This document shows, piece after piece, positions 9,765 to 38,367 of a stretch of 64,000 nt of DNA. The position numbers and the translations under genes were made by a program. The notes beneath the pieces are model-generated. The model worked only from the letters and a program-made list of their open reading frames with translations, was not told where the DNA came from and made no database searches. Numbering within the stretch: the stretch's first letter is position 1; the number at the start of each line of letters is the position of its first letter. The DNA comes from Eubacteriales bacterium (GTDB lineage: Bacteria; Bacillota; Clostridia; Lachnospirales; JAVBJQ01): positions 129,104 through 193,103 of the forward strand of contig JAVBJQ010000001.1 of NCBI GenBank assembly GCA_031546905.1, written 5' to 3'.

Positions 9765-10685
9765 ATGTTGATATATATTGCAAAAAGATTTTTATATTCT
9801 CTGCTTACCATTTATATCGTAATAACAATAACGTTTTTCTTAATGCACGCAATCCCTGGAAAGTTCTATGCAGGTGAAAAGGCTTTGCCTGCCAGCGTTA
9901 TGAAAAGTTTGGATGAAAAGTATGGTCTTGATAAACCACTGATGCAACAATACTTTATTAATGTATCAAACATAACAAAACTTGATTTTGGCGTTTCCAT
10001 GTACAAGCGTGGGAGAAGTGTAAACGACATTATAAAACAGCATTTTCCTGTGTCCGCTTTAATTGGAAGTGTTTCCATTATTCTTGCGCTGACATTCGGA
10101 ATTTTGTTTGGTATTATTGCTGCCATGTACCACAATAGATGGCAGGATTATTTGTTTATGTTTATTGCCACAATTGGGGTTACCATTCCTGGGTTTGTTA
10201 TGGCGTCCATTGCACAGTATATTTTTGGTGTTAAATTGGGAATTCTTCCAGTTATGCAACTTAAATCAGTGGCTCATATGGTGATGCCATGTATAACTTT
10301 GTCATTTTTCCCACTTTCTTTTATCACAAGATTAATTAGGTCAAGTATGCTTGAAGTAATGGAACAAGACTACGTAAGAACTGCTCGTTCAAAAGGTCTT
10401 TCTGAAAGACTTGTAGTGTACAAACATGCGCTTAAGAATGCGATACTTCCTGTTATTACGTATTTAGGACCAATGATTGCTTTTATTCTAACTGGTAGCT
10501 TCGTTATTGAAAAAATATTTGCAATTCCGGGGCTTGGAAGATTTTTTATTGAATCAATTGGAAATCGTGACTATACCGTTATCATGGGCACAACAGTTTT
10601 TCTTGCTTCGATTGTTATAGTGATGAATTTTATTGTTGATATTCTCTATTTACTAGTAGACCCAAGAATAAAATTAAATAAATGA
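9765..10685 (+). CDS. oppB: oligopeptide ABC transporter permease
   Basis: Binding-protein-dependent transport inner-membrane component with the EAA-loop region (YVRTARSKGLSE). Strong AGGAGG RBS. Confidence 0.88.
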   Translation: MLIYIAKRFLYSLLTIYIVITITFFLMHAIPGKFYAGEKALPASVMKSLDEKYGLDKPLMQQYFINVSNITKLDFGVSMYKRGRSVNDIIKQHFPVSALIGSVSIILALTFGILFGIIAAMYHNRWQDYLFMFIATIGVTIPGFVMASIAQYIFGVKLGILPVMQLKSVAHMVMPCITLSFFPLSFITRLIRSSMLEVMEQDYVRTARSKGLSERLVVYKHALKNAILPVITYLGPMIAFILTGSFVIEKIFAIPGLGRFFIESIGNRDYTVIMGTTVFLASIVIVMNFIVDILYLLVDPRIKLNK

Positions 10686-10698
10686 AAGTGTGGATAAT

Positions 10699-11664
10699 AT
10701 GAATGATAAATTTGAGCCTATTAATAAAAATGAGATAGCATTAGAACGCCAACTATCTGGACCAAGTTTAACTTATTGGCAAGACGTTTTAAGACGTTTG
10801 CGCAGAAATAAGGTGGCCATGGCAAGTTTGGTTTCTATCATTGTAATAATTTTAGTCGTTATATTTGTGCCTATGTTTATGCCATTTACGTATTCAGACC
10901 AATTAAGAGGGCAAGAAAGTCTTTTCCCTAATATAAATCACATTTTTGGGACAGACCAACTAGGCCGTGATATGTTTGTTCGTATTCTTTATGGGGCTAG
11001 AATTTCGTTGGCAGTAGGCATTGTGGCAGCGATTATTAATCTTACCATTGGGGTTTTGTACGGCGGAATCGCAGGTTATGCTGGTGGGAAAGTAGATACA
11101 GTAATGATGCGTATTGTGGATATTTTATATAGCGTTCCCGATATGCTTTACATCATTTTGCTTATGGTTGTTCTTGGTAGTGCAAAAGAAATTTTTGATG
11201 CACCAGCCTTTGCACTTTTAAAAGGAATTGGCGGAACAAAATTGATTAGCGTTTTCATTGCAATTGGTATTTCTTACTGGCTAGGAATGGCAAGAATTGT
11301 AAGAGGTCAAATCCTTAGCTTAAAGCAACAAGAGTATGTGACTGCGGCAAGGGCTTTAGGTGCAGGCAGACGTAGAATTTTATTTAGACATTTACTTCCT
11401 AACTGTATAGGAACCATTATCGTTACGGTTACGCTTCAAATTCCTACCGCTATATTTACAGAATCTTTTTTAAGCTTCATCGGGTTGGGTGTTGATGCAC
11501 CGATGGCGAGCCTTGGAAGTTTGGCTTCTGACGGGTTGGCTTTGGTGAGAAGTTACCCATATCAATTGATTTTTCCGGCACTTGCAATATGTTTGATTAT
11601 ATTATCTTTTAATCTTTTGGGTGACGGTTTATCAGAAGCATTAGACCCAAGAATGAGAAAGTAG
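10699..11664 (+). CDS. oppC: oligopeptide ABC transporter permease
   Basis: OppC-type N-terminus (SLTYWQDVLRRLRRNKVAM), FGTDQLGRD motif and EAA loop (YVTAARALGAG). Confidence 0.88.
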   Translation: MNDKFEPINKNEIALERQLSGPSLTYWQDVLRRLRRNKVAMASLVSIIVIILVVIFVPMFMPFTYSDQLRGQESLFPNINHIFGTDQLGRDMFVRILYGARISLAVGIVAAIINLTIGVLYGGIAGYAGGKVDTVMMRIVDILYSVPDMLYIILLMVVLGSAKEIFDAPAFALLKGIGGTKLISVFIAIGISYWLGMARIVRGQILSLKQQEYVTAARALGAGRRRILFRHLLPNCIGTIIVTVTLQIPTAIFTESFLSFIGLGVDAPMASLGSLASDGLALVRSYPYQLIFPALAICLIILSFNLLGDGLSEALDPRMRK

Positions 11665-23944: not shown

Positions 23945-25546
23945 TTAAAATTCCTTCATAAATTTACTTTGTTTAATAATCCGTGGATAACTTAGCCCAG
24001 TAGTTGGTTGTTTCATATCTACCAATTCAATATCTAAATTAAAAACAGATAAATTGTTATACATATCATAGTTTAGATTTTTATATAAAAAAGTCTGTTT
24101 TTTAAGTAAATGTAACTGGGAAAGGGTGTGTTTATCTGCTTTTTTTACTTTTCGTTTGCTGGTAGGAGCCGTATATTCAAGCATTTTATTTTTTTCTGTG
24201 TCTAAGAAAAAGGAGTAATCACTTTTAAATAAATTGGGATCAAATGCTCTGGAAATTTCAGTATGTAAATCATTAAGGGTAGTTGACTCAAGTACTTCTA
24301 TTGTTTTCCAGTAGCGTTTATCTTTGGAAAGTTTTGCCTTTAACACATACACCATTTGGAGGTCAAATGTATCGTCAATAAATGCTTTTAAAGATTGTTT
24401 GCCAATTTCCTTAAATACAGAATTAAAAATTTCATCAACTGTAAACTCGCCTTTAAATTCTTCTAAAATGTAGTCGGTGTAATCTGTTTTTAAAAAGCTG
24501 TTGCCAAAAGAAGTTACGCTATAATAAGAGCATGGCCAAAATAAAGAAGAAATATTATCTTCAGAGCCAGCGTTTTGAATGTTCTCATAAATGCTGTGGA
24601 CTTCTTCCGTAAATTTGTAAACAAAGGAATATAAGGGCTGAATAAGCTTTAAATAACTACCAAACAGGGTAAGAAACCATTGGTCAATTAATATTCCTAA
24701 AATATAAACAGAGGATAAAACGGCACCATCAAACTCATTTAAATCCACGTTAGAGTCGTATTGCTCCCAAAGGTCAAAAATATCGATTCCTAAAGAGGAA
24801 TAAATCCGTTTAAAAAGAAAATCTGGCTCAATTGGCGTTGTTAAAATAGAGTGAACAAGTTCTTTTGAAAAAACATCATCATCAAAGGGGATGGCAGTAG
24901 ATAAATTTTCAGCGCACACTTCAATGGCGGCGTCTACAATTTTTTTCAACACACTGCTTTTACTGCCTTTAAAAAAGTTCTCATAGTCATTTACTGCTTG
25001 GGCTTTATTTGAATAAATAGACGGAATTTTTTTCACTAAATCTAGTTTAAAACAAAGCAATTGGAGAAATATAATGTAAAAAGGGTCGTATAAAGATAAC
25101 TTATCAAGCAGTGTAATGGTTTCTTCATAACGCATATAGTCAGAGTCGTCTAAGTTTAAATCGGGGCGAGAATGTTCCAAAAAAATTTTTAAATCGTCGA
25201 TAATAGGGTGGGATTTTGAGTTATAAACCTCAACACTAAAAGTAAAACCAGTCAGTGCATTATTCACCAAAACGGGCTTTATGTTTGTAACAACAGTAGT
25301 AGATTTATTTTTTTTGGCAACACTTTCTGCCAACAGGTTCACCAGGTTAGCAGGTGTGACAACGGATTCGCCAATCAACGAAGAGTTATACCATTTGTTA
25401 TAAAGCACACCGACATACCGTAAAATTTTATTTTTGTCTTTATATTTAAGAAGCTTATAAGCGTCCATAAAATTGCTAGCAAATAAATTATTTAATTTTA
25501 TAAAATAATCATTATTTTCAATTAAAGTTTTAATATCAGAACTCAT
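23945..25546 (-). CDS. hypothetical 533-aa protein with C-terminal MM3350/pRiA4b-ORF3-like domain
   Basis: The C-terminal ~130 aa reads VYVLKAKLSKDKRYWKTIEVLESTTLNDLHTEISRAFDPNLFKSDYSFFL...GLSYPRII. This resembles the IYQLKV.L....IWRR..VP...TL.DLH..IQ.AMGW motif of the family as I recall it. The N-terminal 400 aa are unassigned. GGAGG RBS present. Confidence 0.5.
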   Translation of the reverse strand: MSSDIKTLIENNDYFIKLNNLFASNFMDAYKLLKYKDKNKILRYVGVLYNKWYNSSLIGESVVTPANLVNLLAESVAKKNKSTTVVTNIKPVLVNNALTGFTFSVEVYNSKSHPIIDDLKIFLEHSRPDLNLDDSDYMRYEETITLLDKLSLYDPFYIIFLQLLCFKLDLVKKIPSIYSNKAQAVNDYENFFKGSKSSVLKKIVDAAIEVCAENLSTAIPFDDDVFSKELVHSILTTPIEPDFLFKRIYSSLGIDIFDLWEQYDSNVDLNEFDGAVLSSVYILGILIDQWFLTLFGSYLKLIQPLYSFVYKFTEEVHSIYENIQNAGSEDNISSLFWPCSYYSVTSFGNSFLKTDYTDYILEEFKGEFTVDEIFNSVFKEIGKQSLKAFIDDTFDLQMVYVLKAKLSKDKRYWKTIEVLESTTLNDLHTEISRAFDPNLFKSDYSFFLDTEKNKMLEYTAPTSKRKVKKADKHTLSQLHLLKKQTFLYKNLNYDMYNNLSVFNLDIELVDMKQPTTGLSYPRIIKQSKFMKEF

Positions 25547-25719: not shown

Positions 25720-25748
25720 TTGATTTTTTAGGCACAGTTTAGTATGAT
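25720..25748 (+). promoter_or_regulatory. sigmaA-type promoter for clpS-clpA
   Basis: TTGATT (25720-25725), 17 nt, TATGAT (25743-25748). Confidence 0.5.
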
Positions 25749-25797
25749 AAGGAGAGATATGGGGTGGGAAATAAATTTACAAAAGGAGGCAGCTGTT

Positions 25798-26103
25798 TTG
25801 TCTATGAACATACAGTACCATGAACAGACTGAAACAAAATTAAAACAACCCAATTTGTTTGCGGTAGTTTTGCATAATGACGATTATACGCCCATGGATT
25901 TTGTGGTGGAGATTATTGTAAAAATTTTTAATAAATCTTCGGTGGAAGCGGCAAAAATAATGATGGAGGTTCATGAAAAAGGAAAAAGTGTGGTGGATGT
26001 TTATATTTATGATGTTGCCATGACCAAAAAATTAAATGTTCAAACCATTTCAAAAGACAGAGGATTTCCGCTAAAAGTAACGGTAGAAGAGGCGATTTTA
26101 TGA
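25798..26103 (+). CDS. clpS: ATP-dependent Clp protease adaptor ClpS
   Basis: Core PNLFAVVLHNDDYTPMDFVVEIIVKIF...EAAKIMMEVHEKGKSVV. TTG 25798 lies 8 nt after AGGAGG, and ATG 25804 is the alternative start. The stop overlaps the clpA start (ATGA). Confidence 0.88.
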   Translation: MSMNIQYHEQTETKLKQPNLFAVVLHNDDYTPMDFVVEIIVKIFNKSSVEAAKIMMEVHEKGKSVVDVYIYDVAMTKKLNVQTISKDRGFPLKVTVEEAIL

Positions 26104-28361
26104 ACTTTGATAGCATAACCAACCAAATATATATTGTGGCATTTAATGAAGCAAAACTTCAAATGCACGAGTACCTGTGTCCAGAACATATTTTATATTC
26201 CACGTTGCTGTTTGGATTGGGACGAGAAATGATAGAGCGAAGTGGGGGGAACCCAGAAAAAATAATGCAGGCGTTGCAAACTTTTTTTAATCAGCACGTG
26301 CCAAAAAGAGAGACCGTAGAACCTGTTGAGTCTGCTGGACTTATTTTTTTAATAGAATCAGCAGTAAGACACGCCAATCATTCGGGAAAAAAAGAAGTGA
26401 ACATAGGCGATGTCATTGTTTCTTTTTTTGAACTTCCGGAGTCCTTTGCAGTGTATATTTTAAAAAATAATGGCGTAAATAAGCTTGCCTTGTTAAATTA
26501 CATTGCCCACGGGCTAAAACTTGAAACAGAGCAAAGTCATTCCACCACCAATAAAAAAAATAAAGATCAAGAATTTATGAATACTTATGCCATGAATTTA
26601 ACAGAAAGAGCAAGGGCGGGAAAATTAGATAAATTAATTGGACGAGAAGATATTTTAACAAGAACGATTCAAGTGTTGTGCAGAAGAATAAAAAATAATC
26701 CTATTCATATTGGAGAGCCAGGAGTAGGCAAGACAGCCATTGTAGAAGGCATCGCCCAGTTAATTGCAGGAAATAAAGTGCCAAAGCCCATACAAAATGC
26801 CAATGTTTATTACATTGAAATCAGCAACATCATTGCGGGGACAAAGTACCGAGGGGACTTTGAAGAGCGATTTTTAAAGTTATTGGAACTGATTTCAAAA
26901 GAAGAAAACCCTATTGTTTATATTGATGAAATTCATACGGTGGTGGGAGCCGGGGCTGTTTCAGGAAGTTCAGTAGATGCCGCAGGAATTTTAAAACCGT
27001 ATCTTGCCAAAGGGGAAGTTCGGTTTATTGGTTCTACCACTTTTGATGAATATAAAAAGCATTTTGAAAAAGACAGGGCGTTTTCACGGAGATTTCAAAA
27101 AATAGAAGTTCCGGAGCCAACCGTAGAAGAAACAATTGGTATTATCGAGGGCATAAAAGAAAAGTATGAAGCCTATCACAATGTGGTGTACAAAAAAGAA
27201 ATAATAGAACACGTTTGTAAGTTGGCGGACAAATATATTCAGGATAGATTTCTGCCAGATAAGGCAATTGATATTATTGATGAAACGGCTGCATTGTTGC
27301 GGATGAATGTGCAAACCGAAGCGCCAATTATTATCCAAAAAGAAGATGTTGAAAAAACAATTTCCCTTACGGCCAAAATTCCTACAGAAAGTATTTCTTC
27401 CAACGAAATTGACAAGTTAAGAAATCTCTCTGAAAATTTGAAAAAAGAAATTTTTGGTCAAGATGAAGCAGTAGAAGTCATTGTAAGTGCCATTAAAAGT
27501 GCCAGATCTGGGTTGAATGAATTTGAAAAACCCGTTGCTTCTTTTCTTTTTGTAGGACCAACAGGCGTTGGAAAAACAGAAGTTTCAAAGCAACTTGCAA
27601 ACTTGCTAGGCATTAGTTTACTGCGGTATGACATGAGCGAGTATCAAGAAAAACACGCAGTGTCAAGGTTAATTGGTGCTCCTCCCGGGTACGTTGGTTA
27701 TGAAGAGGGTGGACTTTTAACTGATGCGATTAAACGAACACCTTATTGTGTGTTGCTTTTGGATGAAGTAGAAAAAGCCCATCCGGATATTTTAAACGTT
27801 TTGCTTCAAGTGATGGACTATGGAAGTCTAACAGATAATGCAGGGAAAAAGGCGGACTTTAGAAATGTTATTTTAATTATGACCTCCAATGCAGGTGCAA
27901 CAGAACTAGGCAGAAGAATCATCGGATTTGAAGAAAAAGTTACTAAAAATGAAGTAATTGACAAAGCCGTAAACAAAACTTTCTCTCCTGAGTTTAGAAA
28001 CCGATTAGATGAGATTGTAATTTTTAATGGCATAGATGAAAAAATGGCACACGCCATTGCTATCAAAGCAATTGGGAAGCTTCAAAATAGATTAAAAGAC
28101 AAAAAAATAAAAATGGAAGCTACAGACGATGTAATCAAATATATTGTTGAAAAAGGCATATCCAATATTTATGGTGCCAGGGAAATTATGCGGGTAGTGG
28201 AAAAAGATATTAAGAAAAAGCTAACGGACTATGTTTTGTTTGGCGAACTGGCAGAAGGTAGTAAACTTTATATTGATTTAAGAAATGGAGAAATCCATGT
28301 TTCAAAAAGAAAGAAACGAAAAAGTGAAGCAGATATGAAAAAAATAAACCGTTCTCTATGA
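26100..28361 (+). CDS. clpA: ATP-dependent Clp protease ATP-binding subunit ClpA
   Basis: Clp N-domain, D1 Walker A GEPGVGKTAIVEG, D2 Walker A GPTGVGKTEVSKQLA. No long middle coiled-coil, 753 aa, translationally coupled to clpS. Confidence 0.9.
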   Translation: MNFDSITNQIYIVAFNEAKLQMHEYLCPEHILYSTLLFGLGREMIERSGGNPEKIMQALQTFFNQHVPKRETVEPVESAGLIFLIESAVRHANHSGKKEVNIGDVIVSFFELPESFAVYILKNNGVNKLALLNYIAHGLKLETEQSHSTTNKKNKDQEFMNTYAMNLTERARAGKLDKLIGREDILTRTIQVLCRRIKNNPIHIGEPGVGKTAIVEGIAQLIAGNKVPKPIQNANVYYIEISNIIAGTKYRGDFEERFLKLLELISKEENPIVYIDEIHTVVGAGAVSGSSVDAAGILKPYLAKGEVRFIGSTTFDEYKKHFEKDRAFSRRFQKIEVPEPTVEETIGIIEGIKEKYEAYHNVVYKKEIIEHVCKLADKYIQDRFLPDKAIDIIDETAALLRMNVQTEAPIIIQKEDVEKTISLTAKIPTESISSNEIDKLRNLSENLKKEIFGQDEAVEVIVSAIKSARSGLNEFEKPVASFLFVGPTGVGKTEVSKQLANLLGISLLRYDMSEYQEKHAVSRLIGAPPGYVGYEEGGLLTDAIKRTPYCVLLLDEVEKAHPDILNVLLQVMDYGSLTDNAGKKADFRNVILIMTSNAGATELGRRIIGFEEKVTKNEVIDKAVNKTFSPEFRNRLDEIVIFNGIDEKMAHAIAIKAIGKLQNRLKDKKIKMEATDDVIKYIVEKGISNIYGAREIMRVVEKDIKKKLTDYVLFGELAEGSKLYIDLRNGEIHVSKRKKRKSEADMKKINRSL

Positions 28362-28377
28362 GGCGGTTTATTTTTTT
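28344..28377 (+). terminator. intrinsic terminator at the clpA stop
   Basis: ATAAACCG-ttctctatgagg-CGGTTTAT followed by TTTTTTT. Confidence 0.6.
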
Positions 28378-28574
28378 GTAAAAAATTTGTCAAGGGGTTT
28401 TAAAATGTTTGTGCAAATTTTTTTAAAATTGTTACATTTTTGCTAATATCTTTTTTTAAAAGGACGATAAAAAAGTCGTAAGGAAAAATAAGGGAGATTT
28501 AAACAGTAGGAGGCTGGTGCAAGTGAAAAAGACAATAATGGAATGCCAAACGTAGCATCATCAATGAGTATATT

Positions 28575-28602
28575 TTGACATAATTAACAACGCAACTATA
28601 AA
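28575..28602 (+). promoter_or_regulatory. sigmaA-type promoter for recombinase 1
   Basis: TTGACA (28575-28580), 16 nt, TATAAA (28597-28602). Confidence 0.45.
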
Positions 28603-28629
28603 AATACTTCATGAGGATGGATGATCATT

Positions 28630-29208
28630 ATGGCAACCACAGAACCGATTAAAGATGCAGAAACAATCCAACAAATTAAAGAATATTTGATGATAAAAGA
28701 AGACTACAGAATGTTTTCCTTAATTACCATGGGATTTCACAGTGCCCTTCGAATCGGAGATATTTTAAAGTTTTGCTGGGGAGATGTATACGATTTTAAA
28801 AACAAATTGTTTAAAAAGTATGTCACGCTAAAAGAACAAAAAACCGGAAAAAATGCAAAGGTGGCATTACACACCAATACAATTCGGGCACTGGAAATGT
28901 ACATGGATTCGTTACCACCCATAACAGCAGAGCGGTACATATTTAAAAGTCAAAAGAGTCAGAACAAACCATTATCCCGTATTCAAGCGTACCGAATTAT
29001 GAAAAAAATCGAAACAGATTTGCAAATCGAGACAAATTTTTCGTGTCATTCACTACGAAAAACATTTGGTTATCATGCGTATAAGCAAGGGGCGTCTATT
29101 GCTGTTATTATGAACATATATAACCACTCATCTTTTGAAATTACAAAGCGTTACTTAGGAATATCACAAGATGATAAAGATGAATTATATTTAAATATTA
29201 ATCTTTAA
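28630..29208 (+). CDS. small tyrosine recombinase (catalytic domain only, 192 aa), paralog 1
   Basis: Candidate catalytic residues: R in HSALRIGD, H-x-x-R in CHSLRKTF, H in YNHSS, and Y in ITKRYL. There is no N-terminal SAM-like core-binding domain. Start chosen by colinearity with the paralog at 32867. Confidence 0.85.
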   Translation: MATTEPIKDAETIQQIKEYLMIKEDYRMFSLITMGFHSALRIGDILKFCWGDVYDFKNKLFKKYVTLKEQKTGKNAKVALHTNTIRALEMYMDSLPPITAERYIFKSQKSQNKPLSRIQAYRIMKKIETDLQIETNFSCHSLRKTFGYHAYKQGASIAVIMNIYNHSSFEITKRYLGISQDDKDELYLNINL

Positions 29209-29214
29209 AAAAAT

Positions 29215-29334
29215 AAAAAAAACTGTATTACTTTTAAAATAGAACCTATGTCTTTAAGATATATGATTAAGGAATAATCAAAATGATTACCTTAACAATA
29301 ATAGGTTCTACTTTAAGGGTCTTACAGTTTTTTT
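29215..29334. terminator. 120-nt extended imperfect palindrome acting as a convergent terminator (recombinase 1 / fliB)
   Basis: The 34-nt arm AAAAAAACTGTATTACTTTTAAAATAGAACCTAT (29215-29248) faces ATAGGTTCTACTTTAAGGGTCTTACAGTTTTTTT (29301-29334). A nested hairpin TTAAGGAATAATCA/TGATTACCTTAA lies at 29267-29295. Confidence 0.6.
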
Positions 29335-29371
29335 ATTATTTCAAATTTAGGTGTAATCAAATTTATGTAGG

Positions 29372-30571
29372 TTAAAGAAGATAAACAAGCATGGCTAAAT
29401 CAATGGTTTCGTCATTTTTACAAATATTTTCAATTTGGGTCATTGCTATTTTAGAGTGATTGATTCGGCGGTAGAAATAATAAATACAACTTAAAATATC
29501 TTCATCATTTAAACGACTGCTTTTGTGGTAAATGGATGTTATAAAAAGTTGTAGAAATAAAAATTTTGAGATAAGTGCTTTATAAGCTAAATATAAATTG
29601 TCATAGCCGTAGGGAAATCGAGTAACAAAAACTTCGTTCACCAAATAATTTTCAAATACGTACTCATTTTTTTTCATATATTCATCAAATAAATTTTTCT
29701 TTATTTTATTTAAATCTCTTCCACTTAAATTATCCATTTGCTCATAAAGCTGATGAAGTCGGTCATAAAAATTTGGATTTGAATCGGCTTTTTCAGGTTT
29801 GATAATGGTTTTAATGACTGTCAATATATTGTGGTATACGATGTTACGAATATCAGAATTAACATTTAACTTTTCTTTCATTCCTTTTAAAAGGTCGGCG
29901 TTATCCATTTGACGTTCATAAAAATCTAATTTTTTGAATAAATCATTTTCATAGTCCCCTACAATAGAAACTTTCGAAAGCCCTCTCATGGTTACTCCTA
30001 AATAAATAAGGCGGTCTAACAGGGAATAGTTTCTATTTTGCAATATTTTGGAAAGGACACTACGAATTTCAAAACAAATTTTTTCATTTAAAATAGTTTT
30101 TTTTGATTTGCTTTCTTTTATCATGGTCTCCGTTCTTGTGAAATTCCGAAAAGCCAAGCCCGCCTTGTCGAATAGAAGCAGTTTTGTAACTTCTGGACAA
30201 GACAATCCTAGATGAAGCTCACTGACATCATTAAATAAAGTTTGCCCACGAGGATACGTTTTGCAAGTGGCACATAAATAATCAGCACCAAGGTTTTTAT
30301 GAATTTTACATAGCCCATCGGTGTCCTGCATGGTGCAGTAGCCATCCGCTGTAGCTTTAAATGTTTGTATCTTGTCCTCTTGTTCATAGATTGATTGGCG
30401 CAGTTCGTCGCCAAAAACCCCTTCTATTTCTGTATAACGATTATAAGTATCACGGTCTATGGTAATTGTCCAAGTAGAGATACGACAGCATTTATCTAAG
30501 CAAGCGCTTCCCGTACATTGAAACAAAGTATATTTTTCATAAGTAATGCCATGTCTTTGTGAGGTTGTCAT
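29372..30571 (-). CDS. fliB: flagellin lysine-N-methylase FliB-family protein
   Basis: Cys cluster FQCTGSACLDKCC, then GYCTMQDTDGLCKIHKNLG...CATCKTYPR and LGLSCPEVTKLL. This is colinear with Salmonella FliB as I recall it, and the gene lies immediately downstream of flagellin. Confidence 0.8.
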   Translation of the reverse strand: MTTSQRHGITYEKYTLFQCTGSACLDKCCRISTWTITIDRDTYNRYTEIEGVFGDELRQSIYEQEDKIQTFKATADGYCTMQDTDGLCKIHKNLGADYLCATCKTYPRGQTLFNDVSELHLGLSCPEVTKLLLFDKAGLAFRNFTRTETMIKESKSKKTILNEKICFEIRSVLSKILQNRNYSLLDRLIYLGVTMRGLSKVSIVGDYENDLFKKLDFYERQMDNADLLKGMKEKLNVNSDIRNIVYHNILTVIKTIIKPEKADSNPNFYDRLHQLYEQMDNLSGRDLNKIKKNLFDEYMKKNEYVFENYLVNEVFVTRFPYGYDNLYLAYKALISKFLFLQLFITSIYHKSSRLNDEDILSCIYYFYRRINHSKIAMTQIENICKNDETIDLAMLVYLL

Positions 30572-30601
30572 GATAAGGCTCCTTTTGTGTAATTAAAATT
30601 G

Positions 30602-30640
30602 AAAAACGTGTGAACTGCTGTACGCTGTTCACACGTTTTT
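30602..30640 (-). terminator. intrinsic terminator after fliC
   Basis: AAAAACGTGTGAAC-tgctgtacgc-TGTTCACACGTTTTT. It lies only ~30 nt upstream of the fliB start. Confidence 0.75.
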
Positions 30641-30669
30641 GTTGGCCGTACGTTTTAAAAACGATTTGT

Positions 30670-32436
30670 TTATCTTAAAAGTTGTAATACGTTTTGAGGA
30701 GCTTGATTAGCTTGCGCAAGCATAGAAGTTGCAGCTTGTGAAAGCACGTTTGATTTTGTAAAACTCATCATTTCTTTTGCCATATCAGTATCACGAATAC
30801 GAGATTCAGCAGAAGAAAGATTTTCGGAAGCAACATCCAAGTTTTTAATGGTGTGCTCTAAACGGTTTTGGTATGCGCCAAGTTTAGCACGTTGTTGAGA
30901 CACTTGTTCAAGGGCATTGTCAAGCACTTTGGTAACAGCTGATATTTGTTCTCCACGAGTTTGACTAGTAGAAGAAGAAGTACCAGGAGTTATTGTTGTA
31001 ACATCTTTCGTAGTTTCGGTATCTACAGTGCCATCAACTACGCTAGCGGACATTGTAAGGTCATTTTTTGCAGTTGATTTAAATGAAAATGTATTACCAT
31101 CATTCATTGTTACAGTAACCCCTGCTAGCTTCCAAGCTTCAATTTCATGGGTACCTGTTGTGATTGATTTTAAAATTTCATCATTTGACGCTGGTCCACC
31201 AGAAGCGCCATCCGCTCCACCAGTAATAGAAGCAATGTCAGCAGCATCAATATTAGCAAATGTAATCACAGAATCATCAGAAGAAGTTGCACCTGCAGTT
31301 TTAACCGAGATAGTTTTGTTACTACCACCAGTAGTAAGTGATGAACCACCTGAAAATTCAGACTCTCCAAGGGTTAGGTTGACCCCGTTATCGTCGGCGT
31401 TCATATCTTGATCTCCAGCACCGAAAGGAGAAGTCATTTTACCGACTTGCAACTCACCAGTTGAGGAGATTCCAATAGAAACCCCACCAAAGTTTGCAAT
31501 TGCTTTACCGCCACCACCAGTACTTTCGATGGTGTTGCTTAAATCAGAGAGGAGTTGCTCTTTTGTGTAAGTTCCAGCTGCTAATGTTACATCAGGATTA
31601 TCACTAGGATCATCAGCAACATCGCCATCAGATTTATAGCTTTTAAAGGTCATACTACTACTAATCGTAAGCTTGCCATCTGCTTCAATGGTAAATGAAC
31701 CAGCATTCGTTGTAATTTTTGTAGTTCCGTTTGCTTGAGCAGTACCTAACGCATATTGGGAATCTCCTTTATCAGCAGCAGCCCCCCCAACAGTCGCTGC
31801 AAGTGCTAATGTACCTGGTGTTGTAACAGATTTTGTTGTTGAAGTACCTGCTGTGGTGGTGGTAGTAGTGGTAGGAGCTACCTTGCCAGAAATAACATCT
31901 CCAATAGCCACTTGATCTACCCCTAAAGATTTTGCATTCATACCTTGAATGTTAAAACTCATTCCCTGGTCTTTATTGGCACCAGTTTGAAGATAAAGTT
32001 TAGAATTTTTCCAGCTACCATCAATTAATTTTTTGGTATTAAATTCAGTTTTAGAAGCGATACCGTCAATTTCTGTGGACAATTCGTTAAGTTCTAACGC
32101 AATTTTACCTCTGTCGTCTTCGGTAATCGTGTCGTTAGAGGCTTGCACAGTTAATTCTCTCATACGTTGAATAATGCTATGTGTTTCTGAAAGCGCACCT
32201 TCTGCTGTTTGAATTAAGCTGATACCATCTTGTGCATTTTTAGAAGCTTGGTCTAGCCCTCTAACTTGTGAACGCATTTTTTCAGAAATCGCAAGGCCGG
32301 CTGCATCATCTGCTGCACGGTTAATACGTAAACCACTTGATAACCTTTCCGATGCTCTTGCTTGGCTATCACCTACAACTTTTAAAGATCTTTGACTGTT
32401 TAAAGCTAATGTGTTTGTGTTAATTACTGTACTCAT
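30670..32436 (-). CDS. fliC: flagellin (588 aa, large hypervariable central domain)
   Basis: Conserved N-terminus (INTNTLALNSQRSL...LSSGLRINRAADDAAGLAISEKM) and C-terminus (LGAYQNRLEHTI...AESRIRDTDMAKEMMSFTKSNVLSQAATSMLAQANQAPQNVLQLLR). The middle is rich in Thr, Gly and Ser. Confidence 0.95.
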   Translation of the reverse strand: MSTVINTNTLALNSQRSLKVVGDSQARASERLSSGLRINRAADDAAGLAISEKMRSQVRGLDQASKNAQDGISLIQTAEGALSETHSIIQRMRELTVQASNDTITEDDRGKIALELNELSTEIDGIASKTEFNTKKLIDGSWKNSKLYLQTGANKDQGMSFNIQGMNAKSLGVDQVAIGDVISGKVAPTTTTTTTAGTSTTKSVTTPGTLALAATVGGAAADKGDSQYALGTAQANGTTKITTNAGSFTIEADGKLTISSSMTFKSYKSDGDVADDPSDNPDVTLAAGTYTKEQLLSDLSNTIESTGGGGKAIANFGGVSIGISSTGELQVGKMTSPFGAGDQDMNADDNGVNLTLGESEFSGGSSLTTGGSNKTISVKTAGATSSDDSVITFANIDAADIASITGGADGASGGPASNDEILKSITTGTHEIEAWKLAGVTVTMNDGNTFSFKSTAKNDLTMSASVVDGTVDTETTKDVTTITPGTSSSTSQTRGEQISAVTKVLDNALEQVSQQRAKLGAYQNRLEHTIKNLDVASENLSSAESRIRDTDMAKEMMSFTKSNVLSQAATSMLAQANQAPQNVLQLLR

Positions 32437-32547
32437 ATTAATTCATCCTTCCATTGATGTTTAGGGTCATCCTTTTCCCTTTTAAATAGTTTTTATATTT
32501 ATTTAAACCAAAGTCGGCCTTAACTTTTGGTCAAAATATCAAAATAG

Positions 32548-32733
32548 TTAGACTGCAGTTTCCTCTGCAGTGTGTAAGTTTCGGTCAATAACCGACTCAC
32601 GCAAAATGTTGTAAGACATAGGGGCTTGGATCCCCATACTAATTTGACCACTGCCAGCATCTTTTACATACTTGACAATAATGTCATCTCCGATTTTTAC
32701 ATAGGTTCCTTCTTTTACAGTTAGTGTTAACAT
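32548..32733 (-). CDS. csrA: CsrA-family RNA-binding protein (divergent, 61 aa)
   Basis: MLTLTVKEGTYVKIGDDIIV....GQISMGIQAPMSYNILRESV matches the CsrA fold pattern (MLxLxRK..e...IGd.i.i.v.....g.vrlGI.AP..v.i.R.E). GGAGGG RBS. Located directly upstream of fliC. Confidence 0.75.
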   Translation of the reverse strand: MLTLTVKEGTYVKIGDDIIVKYVKDAGSGQISMGIQAPMSYNILRESVIDRNLHTAEETAV

Positions 32734-32866
32734 AATAAACCCTCCTTGATTTCTCTCTCATATCCTTTTAAAGGCACAATGTAACATTCTGTATAGATTG
32801 TTTCATATTTTTAAGAAATGTAGAGGGGTTTCTGTGTCTTTTGTTACAAAAAGGAGAATGATGAAT

Positions 32867-33445
32867 ATGAGTACCAGCGAACCAATTAGAAGCATTGAGC
32901 AAATTGAACTGTTAGCCGACTATTATTTAGCAAAACATAATTACAGAAACTATGCCTTAATTGTGTCAGGATTGCATACAGCACTGAGAATTAGCGACTT
33001 GCTTAGTTTGAAATGGGGAAATGTATATAATGTAAGAAGTGGGGTAATGAAGGAATATTTGACGCTCACGGAACAAAAGACAGGAAAAAAAAATAAAATA
33101 AGATTGAATACAAAAATTGTACAAGCCTTAACAAAATTTAAAAATAATATTGGGGAAGTAAATGAAGATTCCTATATTTTTAAAAGCCAGAAGGGCGGGA
33201 ATACGCCAATTACAAGGGTACAAGCCTATAAAATTATTAAGAAAGCAGTCAATGAGCTTTCCCTACAAGGAAATGTAAGTTGCCATTCACTCCGAAAAAC
33301 TTTTGGGTACTGGGCGTGGAAAAGTGGTGTGCAAGTTCCTGTTATTATGGATATTTATAATCATTCTTCTTTTGACATAACCAAAAGATATTTGTGTATT
33401 TCACAGGAAGATAAGGATGACGTGTTTAACAATGTAAAATATTAA
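32867..33445 (+). CDS. small tyrosine recombinase (catalytic domain only, 192 aa), paralog 2
   Basis: A gapless hand alignment with the 28630-29208 product gives 95/192 identical residues. The same candidate catalytic motifs are present (HTALRISD, CHSLRKTFGY, YNHSS, ITKRYL). AGGAG lies upstream of ATG 32867, and the track's longer N-terminus has no support. Confidence 0.85.
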   Translation: MSTSEPIRSIEQIELLADYYLAKHNYRNYALIVSGLHTALRISDLLSLKWGNVYNVRSGVMKEYLTLTEQKTGKKNKIRLNTKIVQALTKFKNNIGEVNEDSYIFKSQKGGNTPITRVQAYKIIKKAVNELSLQGNVSCHSLRKTFGYWAWKSGVQVPVIMDIYNHSSFDITKRYLCISQEDKDDVFNNVKY

Positions 33446-33572
33446 AATATTATTTGAGTCTATGAGCCAACTTCACAGGTATTAAACAATGATATGAAAA
33501 TAAATAAAAATTTTTTTCAAAAAAGTGTTAAGTTATTTTTTGTTATGACGATAAATAACTCAGAAGGCAAAA

Positions 33573-33607
33573 AAGGAAACATTTTATACAAAATGTTTCC
33601 TTTTTTA
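33573..33607 (+). terminator. intrinsic terminator downstream of recombinase 2
   Basis: AAGGAAACATTTT-ataca-AAAATGTTTCCTT followed by TTTTT. Confidence 0.75.
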
Positions 33608-33879
33608 TTGTGAGTTTCATAACGTTGCACAATAACTTATTTGTTTTTTTGTATAAAATTACCAAATGAATTAAAACAACTTATTGGTGTTCTTATAATA
33701 GGTTATCCATCTATTTTTTATTTATAGCAGTTCACTTTTCGTCAGCGAAAATTTTTTAAGGCTTGCCAATTTATTTTATTGGCAGGCCTTACATTTTGGA
33801 AAATTCAATTCCGCCTTTGTCGTGGAATTTCTTTGTGGTGTGTGGTATATTTGTTTTGAAAAAATGAAACATTACCTTC

Positions 33880-35004
33880 ATGTTCATGGATATACAAGAA
33901 AAGAAAGATGTGATCATTATTTTGTACGCTTCGATAGATAAGAAAAAAACAAAACGCCTCGTCTTGGCGTTATTAGATTGGTATGAGAAAAACAAAAGAG
34001 ATTTGCCATGGCGAAGGATAAAAAATCCGTATGCCGTTTGGGTATCGGAAATCATGGCACAACAAACAAAAATTGCCACGGTGATTCCTTATTATAATCG
34101 GTTCATGGAACTTTTCCCTACGGTGGAAGCGTTAGCAACTGCTCATGGGGATGATGTGTTAAAAGCATGGGAAGGTCTTGGATATTATTCACGGGCAAAA
34201 AATTTACAAAAAGCAGCTCAAAAAGTAGTCAGTGAGTTTGATGGGAAAATTCCATCCACCATGAAACAAATAATAAGCCTTCCGGGAATCGGAGAATATA
34301 CAGCGGGAGCTATTTTGAGTATTTGTTTTGGGCAAGCTGTTCCAGCGGTGGATGGAAATGTTTTACGGGTTTTTGCAAGGCTGGAAAATAATGAAATGGA
34401 TATTTCGTTGCCAGTAACAAAAACAATGTTAACAGCATATATAAGCGAACTGATTCCAAAAAATCGGGCAGGAGATTTTACACAAGCAGTTATGGAATTG
34501 GGTGCACTGATTTGTATTCCTAAAAATCCAGTTTGTGAGAGCTGTCCTGTGTCGGCATTTTGCAAAGCGTCTGCATTAGGCAGACAGCAATTACTTCCCG
34601 TTAAGTCAGCAAAACTTGCGCCAAAACATATAACAAAAACCATCCTGCTTATACAAGGAAGCAACGACAGACTTCTTATGCGACAGAGGACAGAAAAATT
34701 GCTAAACGGGTTATGGGAATTTTATGCAGTAGAGGAGCAATGGGAGCGGGCGGATGTAAAAAAATATATAGAGACATTGGGCGTAAATAGTGAAAACATT
34801 TTCTCTATTGGAAAAATAAATCATACATTTACCCACATGGTTTGGGAAATGGAAGGATTTTTTTGTGACGTGGGAGAAATGCCTACCCCAGAAGGCTACA
34901 CTTGGATTTTAAAAGATCAAATAAAGTCGCTGGCCATTCCCACAGCCATGCAGTTTTTTGTCCAATATATAATGGGAGAGCGGGACGTACAAATTCAATT
35001 GTAA
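33880..35004 (+). CDS. mutY: A/G-specific adenine DNA glycosylase
   Basis: LLDWYEKNKRDLPWR, HhH-GPD region (LPGIGEYTAGAI), Fe-S Cys cluster (C..C..C.....C), and a C-terminal NUDIX-like domain. The start is uncertain within the first ~3 codons. Confidence 0.9.
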   Translation: MFMDIQEKKDVIIILYASIDKKKTKRLVLALLDWYEKNKRDLPWRRIKNPYAVWVSEIMAQQTKIATVIPYYNRFMELFPTVEALATAHGDDVLKAWEGLGYYSRAKNLQKAAQKVVSEFDGKIPSTMKQIISLPGIGEYTAGAILSICFGQAVPAVDGNVLRVFARLENNEMDISLPVTKTMLTAYISELIPKNRAGDFTQAVMELGALICIPKNPVCESCPVSAFCKASALGRQQLLPVKSAKLAPKHITKTILLIQGSNDRLLMRQRTEKLLNGLWEFYAVEEQWERADVKKYIETLGVNSENIFSIGKINHTFTHMVWEMEGFFCDVGEMPTPEGYTWILKDQIKSLAIPTAMQFFVQYIMGERDVQIQL

Positions 35005-37017: not shown

Positions 37018-38367
37018 ATGCAAATAGGTGGAATAAGTCAAAATACGGGGGCCAGCGGGGCAACTCCTCAAAATCAAAAAAGTATATCTCAGCTTTCAGA
37101 AGGGGAAAAGTTCAAGGCTACCATTTTAGATATAAAGCCCAACCAAGTTACCATACGCCTTGGGGATGGAACACAACTTACTGCAAAAGCATTGGTAACA
37201 CCTGATGCAAGAATTTCTCAAGAAATGACTTTTTCTGTAAAAGAAAATATGCAAGGGCAAGTTTTGTTAGAAATGGTAAAAGCCACTTCTGATCAAACTC
37301 GTCTAGGGGTAATCAAGGAATCGCTACAAGCAGCAGGAATGTACCCCAGTGAAGAAAATAAAGAGCTTGTAAAAGCACTGATGGACAACGGGCTTCCCAT
37401 TGACAAAAACACCCTAGAAAAAGCCGCCTTTTTTAAATATGCAAAAGAGAACATGACACTTGATAAGGTGTTGTTTCTGTTGAAAGAAGATTTTAAGACT
37501 ACGGAAAAAAGTATTGATTCACTGAATCATTTTTTAGAAAAAACAGCAGATGTAAAAAATAATATGAATACTATTTTTAATGAAACACTAAAGTTGCCAG
37601 CTGGTGCTGTTAAAAACAAAATGCTGGAGTTACTGACTGGGGATCAAAAAATGGGGGCATTTGTAGAACTGCTCAACACCAAAGAACCAGCAGAGGCATT
37701 AGCACTGTTAAAAGACAAAGATACCCCATTTCATGATTTAAAAAAGAAAATAGGGGAAGAATTTTTAAAAACAGGAGACATGAAAAAAGCCCTAGTAAAC
37801 AGTGTCCTCCTTGAACTGAAAGACAAAGATTCTTTAAAGGAAATCAATCATTTTTTTAAGCAGTTAAATAACAGCATGGCAGAAGCGACAAAAGTAAGCA
37901 GTGATGTTCCTATGTTAAACAAAGCGGTTCATGACATGAAAGACAATATTGCATTTATGAATCAAATTGACAATTACAAACAGTTGATGCAAATTCCGTT
38001 TACCGTTCAAGGACAGCAAAATGAAAGTGATATATATGTGCTGAAAGGAAAAAAGGGAAGCAAAAACTTAAATGAAAATGCAAGTGTTTTGTTGGCACTG
38101 GATTTAGTTAATTTAGGACATATAGAAGCTTTCATTGTGAAAAATAAAAAAGAAATAACCTGTCAGTTTAGAGTAGAGGATGAAAATATTCAAAAATTGA
38201 TAAAAATAAATGCAGAAAAATTAAATCATTTGCTGCAACAAAACGGTTATGTACTCCAATCTGTAAGTTATAAAAACATACATGAACCATTTACGGTGGT
38301 AGATGATTTGAGTGAAAACAAGGAAGATGCAAAAAATAAACGGTATACTTTTGATATGAGGGTGTAG
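37018..38367 (+). CDS. FliK-like (flagellar hook-length control family) protein, YlqG-position
   Basis: C-terminal Flg_hook-like segment (SVLLALDLVNLGHIEAFIVKNKKEITCQFRVEDENIQKLIKINAEKLNHLLQQNGY). Sits between rnhB and an FlhB-C-like gene. Confidence 0.55.
   Translation: MQIGGISQNTGASGATPQNQKSISQLSEGEKFKATILDIKPNQVTIRLGDGTQLTAKALVTPDARISQEMTFSVKENMQGQVLLEMVKATSDQTRLGVIKESLQAAGMYPSEENKELVKALMDNGLPIDKNTLEKAAFFKYAKENMTLDKVLFLLKEDFKTTEKSIDSLNHFLEKTADVKNNMNTIFNETLKLPAGAVKNKMLELLTGDQKMGAFVELLNTKEPAEALALLKDKDTPFHDLKKKIGEEFLKTGDMKKALVNSVLLELKDKDSLKEINHFFKQLNNSMAEATKVSSDVPMLNKAVHDMKDNIAFMNQIDNYKQLMQIPFTVQGQQNESDIYVLKGKKGSKNLNENASVLLALDLVNLGHIEAFIVKNKKEITCQFRVEDENIQKLIKINAEKLNHLLQQNGYVLQSVSYKNIHEPFTVVDDLSENKEDAKNKRYTFDMRV

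Follow-up and report, generated by a model that had tools for sequence, protein, structure and literature searches.

Why should a flagellin operon stand between two small tyrosine recombinases? The question is raised by a stretch of 64,000 nucleotides of contig JAVBJQ010000001.1 from a Eubacteriales bacterium (the window, in what follows), in which clpA, rec1 (+), fliB (-), fliC (-), csrA (-), rec2 (+), and mutY follow one another. A sequence-only reading of this DNA had proposed that the two recombinases are a dedicated pair that switches or mobilises the 5.5-kb block between clpA and mutY. Open reading frames (ORFs) and family scans returned every gene on which that proposal was built, in the order and at the coordinates given. 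We consider it probable that, of two copies of a self-contained invertible promoter cassette in the block, one is apparently intact and the other decayed. The former contains rec2. It can probably flip, and in doing so it most likely switches the adjacent flagellin operon between on and off. At least one of the recombinases, rec2, very probably serves as a switch for flagellin phase variation, as had been suggested.

The rec2 element occupies about 821 bp (32780 to 33600, + strand) and consists of a left inverted repeat (IR-L), the rec2 gene, a promoter (P2), and a right inverted repeat (IR-R), an anatomy and a size that it shares with about 55 elements of its family. IR-L (32780 to 32805, +) is a core site, TGTAACATTCT-GTAT-AGATTGTTTCA, made of two inverted half-sites around a spacer. 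IR-R (33575 to 33606, +, with its core at 33575 to 33600) reads GGAAACATTTT-ATAC-AAAATGTTTCC followed by TTTTTT, and as sequenced it also serves P2 as an intrinsic terminator. Both arms share the central TGTATA, and they are the only matches to the 22-nt consensus in the 64 kb, where 0.00 would be expected by chance. Scored with a matrix trained on family elements of other genomes, the four half-sites rank 1, 20, 33, and 41 among the approximately 128,000 positions of the window, the outer half-site of IR-L being the best. The rec2 gene (32867 to 33445, +) has a ribosome-binding site, AAAGGAG, 10 nt upstream of its ATG at 32867.

P2 (33528 to 33554, +) is a sigma-28/sigma-D promoter of the form TTAAGTTA-N11-GACGATAA that lies just inside IR-R and faces outward. 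It is the best match in the window (16.1) to a matrix built from 26 promoters of foreign flagellin-linked elements and one of only two regular-expression matches on both strands of the 64 kb. Its position is that found in 23 of the 24 flagellin-linked elements of the family. The rec2 locus thus has both family features, inverted core sites that bracket the gene and an outward sigma-D promoter that matches a flagellin cargo. Folding of the sequence as assembled gives a perfect 17-bp hairpin with a U-tract (U6) at IR-R, and inversion in silico removes both the stem and the U-tract. The operon next to the element is a csrA-fliC-fliB unit composed of a CsrA-like gene of 61 amino acids (32548 to 32733, -; PF02599, 1.2e-12), a flagellin of 588 amino acids (fliC, 30670 to 32436, -; Flagellin_N PF00669, 6e-44; Flagellin_C PF00700, 5e-29), and a flagellin lysine-N-methylase (fliB, 29372 to 30571, -; NF038110 equivalog, 234 bits for a cutoff of 85), all three of them intact ORFs. 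Promoter scans of the window revealed no further sigma-D promoter and no credible sigma-70 promoter directed towards csrA or fliC.

This anatomy predicts a simple switch. The four half-sites (consensus kGwAACAwTyT) would be the binding sites of Rec2, and strand exchange in the shared TGTATA centre would flip the 821-bp segment. In the orientation sequenced, P2 would face mutY and its transcript would reach the IR-R hairpin and U-tract within about 15 nt. With P2 aimed away into this terminator, the flagellin operon would be left promoterless (phase OFF) and mutY would be insulated. In the flipped orientation, P2 would read towards csrA and the hybrid site would form no terminator. Transcription would then reach the csrA ribosome-binding site after a leader of about 86 nt and continue across fliC and fliB (phase ON). 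The predicted flipped junctions are CACAATGTAACATTCTGTATAAAATGTTTCCTTTTTTG and AAAAATATGAAACAATCTATACAAAATGTTTCCTTTTTTAT. Expression in phase ON would remain under sigma-D and probably also under translational control by CsrA. From this orientation logic, and because no alternative promoter was found, we read the assembly as phase OFF. The csrA-fliC spacer (32437 to 32547) contains, by sequence reading, a hairpin CCAAAAGT...ACTTTGG, and GGA motifs that overlap the fliC Shine-Dalgarno sequence there are plausible CsrA sites by analogy with hag of Bacillus subtilis.

What kind of enzyme is Rec2, and how does Rec1 relate to it? Both proteins have 192 amino acids when family-consistent start codons are used, as had been claimed; the ORF list has longer upstream starts, and the database entry of Rec2 has 195 amino acids. 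Both belong to the tyrosine recombinase superfamily, with PF00589 as their sole domain (80.7 bits for Rec1 and 85.3 for Rec2, for a gathering cutoff of 27.1). This domain covers residues 15 to 179 of 192, which leaves no room for an N-terminal core-binding domain. Residues R41, K71/K74, H140, R143, H166, and Y175 are invariant in an alignment of 12 family members, and the LRISD, HSLRKTF, and NHSS..TKRY motifs align to XerA (chain 4a8e). The sequence-only reading was therefore right about the catalytic residues, now in a proper alignment, and about the missing domain, and its description of the pair as tyrosine recombinases of invertase format is supported. Its hand count of 95 identical positions in 192 without gaps is close to the BLASTP result (96 of 193, no gaps, E = 2e-76).

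Named subfamilies did not accommodate the two proteins. The NCBIfam models of FimB and FimE (NF007370 and NF007371) gave 28 to 39 bits for cutoffs of 221 to 222, far enough below to place Rec1 and Rec2 outside that subfamily. The best score with the Xer models (XerA, XerC, XerD, and XerS of NCBIfam) was 70.7 bits for a cutoff of 220 (XerA), and these matches span only the C-terminal half of the models. Since PF00589 is the only domain present, neither protein is a serine invertase of the Hin/Gin type, and the likeness to those systems is one of architecture. The family to which they do belong, for which we found no curated model, is delimited here by a length of 189 to 195 amino acids, collinearity, and 44 positions conserved in at least 95% of the members. 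Rec2 keeps 44 of these 44 positions and Rec1 keeps 40, with conservative substitutions at the other 4; the 84 foreign members keep 41 to 44.

The two recombinases, used as queries, retrieved 5,799 and 3,980 homologues at E <= 1e-3. Nearly all of these have 191 to 192 amino acids, the top matches cover the queries completely, and those with a named source come mostly from Lachnospiraceae. The best identity to Rec1 or Rec2 among the database matches is 55 to 56%, in other genera. The 50% identity between the two proteins does not exceed that to these homologues, so that they did not arise as a pair by recent duplication. They group, in a neighbour-joining tree, with recombinases of termite-gut metagenome-assembled genomes labelled Defluviitaleaceae, Clostridiales, and Oscillospiraceae. 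We examined 91 loci of this family; a sample of 80 loci comprised the best-scoring relatives, with one genome per species. One contig of 88.7 kb, JAAWEL010000089.1, carries three family recombinases (loci L002, L015, and L076), so single genomes can carry several cassettes.

Do other members of the family have the anatomy of the rec2 element? Inverted palindromic repeats flank the recombinase gene in about 55 of the 91 loci. They are 25 to 35 nt long and often perfect, and they delimit elements of 740 to 990 bp. Each arm is itself palindromic (ATGYAACAnnTT-(4-7)-AAnnTGTTRCAT), so that the core site consists of two half-sites around a spacer, in the format of loxP, FRT, or dif. A second architecture consists of promoter-only invertons of 160 to 220 bp beside the recombinase gene (L031:5268-5450, L080:5509-5729, and L078:1410-1568); in all three, a sigma-D promoter is presently aimed into the recombinase gene. 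Loci with a single site or none also exist (L024, L039, and L087). At L090 (2025-8518), two inverted family core sites (22 of 26 positions identical) enclose the recombinase and several genes at a distance of 6.5 kb from each other and may delimit a much larger invertible segment.

Assemblies of relatives reveal that elements of this family physically invert. At L001, a segment of 895 bp (9871 to 10765) edged by inverted repeats of 44 to 51 nt holds the recombinase gene. L004, which encodes the same protein (P0023) and has about 99.5% DNA identity to L001, carries this segment in the opposite orientation relative to both flanks. A second case comes from a flagellin-linked lineage (P0059). In L108, a hybrid core site, ATGTAACA-C-TTTCTAATAAA-T-TGTTACAT, joins the recombinase to the reverse complement of the right flank of L102; the left variant of this site comes from one arm and the right variant from the other, indicating a site-specific crossover inside the spacer. 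A duplicated promoter may have made the right-hand part of L108 chimeric. L083, from a cultured Parablautia isolate, is a scaffold of 857 nt that extends exactly from one inverted repeat to the other, as does L011, and the longest contig is only 0.8 to 1.5 kb for many proteins of the family. Such short and repeat-to-repeat contigs are consistent with the assembly of mixed orientations in the sequenced population. Other contigs (the 3' ends of L104 to L107 and L109, and L108:860-1150) break at the upstream (UP)/-35 part of the element promoter. A copy of this promoter with about 97% identity heads another flagellin gene, and the on-board promoter therefore looks copied from a native flagellin promoter.

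The association with flagellin also recurs in other genomes, as had been predicted. A flagellin gene lies at most 6 kb from the recombinase in 39 of the 80 sampled loci; these are the best-scoring relatives of the query and give no unbiased estimate for the family. The usual layout is a flagellin gene (-), a small CsrA gene (-), and the recombinase gene (+), like the rec2 side of the window, and the closest NCBI relative (L009) likewise has the csrA-flagellin-recombinase layout. A CsrA gene stands between the element and the flagellin gene in at least 24 of the 39 flagellin-linked loci.

The promoter class follows the cargo. A sigma-28/sigma-D promoter (CTAAAGTATTT-N11-CCGATATA..GTGTAAG) is present between the stop codon and the right repeat in 23 of the 24 flagellin-linked elements and in 4 of the 18 others (Fisher test; P = 7.5e-7). 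The remaining elements have a sigma-70-type promoter at the same place, such as TTGCAT-N17-TATGAT in L001. Three members of this kind (L001, L005, and L010) lie beside operons of capsular polysaccharide or teichoic type, and the first genes at L001 are NusG-like. L005 resembles L006 and L007 (10580-20579) in the recombinase, the inverton, and the left polysaccharide operon and differs from them in the right polysaccharide operon, which points to a replacement of cargo beside the switch.

The flanks of the elements are asymmetric as well. The promoter-facing, non-target flank is T-rich in 18 of the 24 flagellin-linked elements, and the flagellin-side flank is so in 2 of the 24, suggesting that only on the non-target side do the palindromic core site and the T-run terminate transcription. 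About 22 flagellin-linked elements of the reference assemblies face away from the flagellin gene and 2 face towards it (L023 and L064); at L064, the T-run is on the flank opposite to the flagellin gene. At L041 (5500-7100) and L057 (1700-3400), a single cassette of a recombinase and a sigma-D promoter, bracketed by core sites, separates two divergent flagellin genes whose 5' ends are nearly identical, making these loci candidates for a biphasic flagellin toggle. The flagellin gene next to the element is cut to 85 amino acids at L092 (795-2631) and L093 (705-2541) by the gene of a large serine recombinase of 525 amino acids (Resolvase/Recombinase/Zn_ribbon), where the cargo of the switch was probably disrupted by insertion of a mobile element.

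Is the rec2 element of the window a working member of this family? Besides the sampling of the loci, several points weigh against it. The arms of rec2 are identical at only 22 of 28 positions, for 93 to 100% in most family members. P2 scores at the low end of its training range (16.1 in a range of 12 to 50) and has GACGATAA in place of CCGATATA, and in the promoter scan rec2 has no recognisable promoter of its own. In the P0062 and P0059 lineages, all contigs reaching across csrA share one orientation, and some of the contig breaks there are due to a duplicated promoter and not to inversion. Physical inversion is known from the assemblies of relatives, and we infer flipping in the organism of the window; the ON and OFF assignment comes from a reading of motifs rather than from transcripts, and the promoters are presumed to depend on sigma-D.

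The mismatched arms also suit an explanation in which both switches of the block are fossils, the rec2 element being static and the flagellin operon either silent or expressed from a promoter that we did not recognise; single-site and site-less loci, rec1 included, also exist in the family. Several features speak against this explanation: the TGTATA centre is the same in both arms, all four half-sites are within the top 41 positions of the window, every conserved residue of Rec2 is in place, csrA, fliC, and fliB are intact, and the orientation-specific terminator is preserved. We therefore regard a fully fossil block as quite unlikely and favour a functional rec2 cassette.

The rec1 side of the block is different. 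The gene (28630 to 29208, +) is an intact ORF, and no inverted repeat pair that brackets it was found, leaving rec1 without a functional pair of sites. Its promoter lies upstream of the gene rather than between the stop codon and a right repeat, as is usual in the family. This promoter, P1 (28443 to 28470, +; CTAATA ... GACGATAA), is sigma-28/sigma-D-like, is aimed into rec1, and is the second-best match to the promoter matrix in the window (11.9). Upstream of it is a lone, half-decayed core site, TGCAAATTTTTT-T-AAAATTGTTACA (28412 to 28436), whose right half-site ranks 3rd and whose left half-site ranks 467th among the positions of the window. The site aligns with the left repeat of the promoter-only invertons, and scans of the window with the half-site matrix and with motifs found no partner for it. 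Most simply, rec1 and P1 would be the remnant of a second, promoter-only switch, locked with its sigma-D promoter driving rec1. Between P1 and rec1 (28508 to 28555) there are a strong AGGAGG ribosome-binding site and a tiny ORF of 10 to 12 codons.

Other sequences around rec1 that resemble sites were rejected. A 41-nt inverted repeat in the AT-rich region between the convergent rec1 and fliB genes (29209 to 29341) had been a candidate for a mini-inverton of rec1. Its arms are 80% complementary, have no internal palindromes, score as non-sites, and are flanked by an A-run and a T-run. With a fold energy of -41.7 and -43.7 kcal/mol on the two strands, this long hairpin is read as a probable bidirectional terminator. 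Half-site scores were negative for a presumed right relic site suggested by a MAFFT alignment (28590 to 28612) and for an inverted repeat around rec1 (28421 to 28453 and 29207 to 29239, 73% complementary). A palindrome at the start of mutY (33865 to 33887) and other loose regular-expression matches are at chance level.

With its catalytic residues complete, its gene driven by a sigma-D promoter, and no usable sites of its own, Rec1 could be either a fossil switch or a second recombinase that acts in trans. In the latter case, the two enzymes would share the rec2 cassette with a division of labour like that of FimB and FimE, and the sigma-D promoter P1 would couple the rate or the direction of switching to the flagellar regulon. 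Cross-recognition is plausible, because half-sites are alike across the family (for instance, TGTAACAATTTT beside P1 and TGTAACATTCTG at IR-L). In the closest lineage, L012 combines a core site at the 5' end of its flagellin operon with, at the 3' end, a recombinase that lacks sites, and the promoter-only invertons at L031, L078, and L080 likewise drive their recombinase when oriented away. On the other side, Rec1 and Rec2 are only 50% identical, the four substitutions of Rec1 at near-invariant positions place it below all the 84 foreign members, and a second recombinase occurs in none of the 39 other flagellin-linked loci. We consider such a two-recombinase switch possible and rather unlikely. 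An elaborate version of it is doubtful, namely a circuit drawn from undescribed and widespread tyrosine-recombinase cassettes in which the site-less, sigma-D-driven Rec1 would act in trans on the rec2 cassette, with flagellar sigma activity feeding back on switching and orientational control like that of FimE. We prefer the reading of rec1 as the decayed copy beside an intact rec2 cassette.

Could the block as a whole move? The sequence-only reading had noted a motif in direct orientation at both borders and had proposed that the recombinases act on it to excise, integrate, or invert the entire 5.5 kb. The motif does exist (28452 to 28500 and 33536 to 33584, 71% identical) and is no chance resemblance, and a matrix derived from other genomes ranks its two copies as the top two matches in the window. 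Its identity is another matter: the copies are the two sigma-D promoters P1 and P2, including the -35 and -10 elements and the start region, and they contain no core site. The sole specific sites are inverted around rec2, and no other family-like pair of sites was found in the 64 kb. The lone site near P1 has TTTTTAAA as its centre and the rec2 sites have TGTATA; the two are incompatible, and exchange between the ends of the block is thus not expected.

Larger segments are within reach of the family, as the core sites 6.5 kb apart at L090 suggest, and excision of a flagellin region by an integrase is known from Escherichia coli H17 (PMC3378880). Against this, the two recombinases have neither an arm-binding nor an N-terminal core-binding domain, and scans found no tRNA and no Rfam match anywhere in the window. 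There are no direct att-like sites, so the block does not have the properties of a genomic island. The absence of a close orthologue of either recombinase among the database matches is unlike what a recently mobile cassette would show. A mobilisable block is accordingly very improbable. The idea of a dedicated pair is not supported either: none of the 91 loci was found to have another recombinase of the family at a distance of up to about 6 kb, and Rec1 is no nearer to Rec2 than to proteins elsewhere. Nor does the locus have the layout of FimB and FimE, the rec2 gene being inside the invertible segment as in Salmonella Hin. An intact rec2 cassette next to a relic accounts for the block without mobility.

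The surroundings of the block are made of genes with housekeeping and sporulation functions. Upstream, ClpS and ClpA (25744 to 28361, +; Pfam) are followed by an intrinsic terminator of clpA (28344 to 28380, +), a hairpin AAACCG...CGGTTT with a T-run and a fold energy of -14.6 kcal/mol. Downstream, a second hairpin (33757 to 33791, +; -21.7 kcal/mol) separates the rec2 element from MutY (33880 to 35004, +; Pfam). In a MutY scan of metagenomes, the closest relatives available (46 to 51% identical) had no synteny with ClpA, recombinase, or flagellin genes. Within the operon, the hairpin after fliC (30601 to 30636, -; ACGTGTGAAC...GTTCACACGT and TTTTT) is a putative terminator or attenuator. Farther away, a lone FliK-like ORF (37018 to 38367; Flg_hook, 3e-8; DUF6240) stands amid housekeeping genes, far from flagellar operons. 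Directly upstream of clpS is an ORF of 533 amino acids (23945 to 25546, -) with a C-terminal PRiA4_ORF3-like domain (5e-7).

What does this locus add? The design is common among gut Clostridia. Our literature search returned no account of Lachnospiraceae flagellin invertons, nor of promoter invertons with a tyrosine recombinase inside; the leading survey of invertons (Jiang et al. 2019, Science) was outside the search, and an earlier mention is possible. The window itself provides one family member and one relic, and the interest lies chiefly in the rules for the whole family that it exposes. Among commensal antigens, the flagellins of Lachnospiraceae and related Clostridia are dominant; they are ligands of TLR5 and are targeted by antibodies and T cells in Crohn's disease. 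If the proposed switch is real, many gut Clostridia would set flagellin expression cell by cell by means of a portable cassette of about 0.8 kb that comprises a recombinase, a flagellar-sigma promoter, and an OFF-state terminator, and some relatives would appear to toggle two flagellins as Salmonella does. The presence of a flagellin gene in a metagenome would then not predict its expression, most reference assemblies having the promoter aimed away, and orientation would be directly readable from sequencing data. The family would also constitute a compact, modular, and reusable set of orthogonal tyrosine-recombinase switches in which the promoter class is swapped according to the cargo.

How do these cassettes compare with the known switches? 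In Salmonella, the hin recombinase gene is located inside an invertible segment of about 1 kb, with an outward promoter downstream of the gene that connects or disconnects a flagellin operon; this invertible promoter serves alternate flagellins (PMC7241687). The rec2 cassette is like this H-segment of Salmonella enterica (fljBA) in its on-board recombinase, its outward promoter, and its flagellin operon target, and at L041 and L057 the likeness extends to a cassette between two flagellin genes. The enzymes differ: Hin is a serine recombinase that requires a Fis-bound enhancer (PMC3798978), whereas Rec2 is a tyrosine recombinase (PF00589) with palindromic core sites like those of loxP or dif, and its cassette carries a sigma-28/sigma-D promoter. 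Moreover, the first gene of the operon in the window encodes a CsrA homologue and not a repressor of the other flagellin, and the core site itself supplies the terminator of the OFF state.

The fimS switch of E. coli, for which the roles of FimB and FimE are summarised in PMC5386303, is similar in its tyrosine recombinases of about 200 amino acids that lack a core-binding domain, in its promoter for a surface appendage, and in having two paralogues per locus. There, however, fimB and fimE are outside the 314-bp switch and both enzymes act on it, whereas rec2 is within its element and a substrate for Rec1 is only proposed. In Clostridioides difficile, the tyrosine recombinase RecV produces ON/OFF flagellar phase variation by DNA inversion of Cdi4, an element of 154 bp with 21-bp inverted repeats in the 5' untranslated region of the early flgB operon that acts after transcription initiation; RecV is encoded remotely and serves several switches (PMC5386303). 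The use of tyrosine recombinase chemistry by Clostridia for flagellar switching is thus common to both systems, but the target in the window is a late flagellin gene, and both the promoter and the recombinase are on board.

The polysaccharide-linked members L001, L005, and L010 recall the capsular polysaccharide promoters of Bacteroides (Mpi and Tsr, with UpxY/NusG-like first genes). Mpi is a serine recombinase that acts globally (PMC5386303), whereas the elements described here are found in Firmicutes, are self-contained, and have one recombinase each. The flnA region of E. coli H17 also links a tyrosine recombinase to a flagellin gene and to a change of flagellar phase. In that case, a full-length integrase, Int1157, excises about 35 kb unilaterally and irreversibly at diverse sites (PMC3378880), unlike the reversible inversion of about 0.8 kb at defined core sites that we propose. 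Taken together, the cassettes resemble Salmonella Hin in their architecture and the tyrosine recombinases FimB/FimE or RecV in their chemistry.

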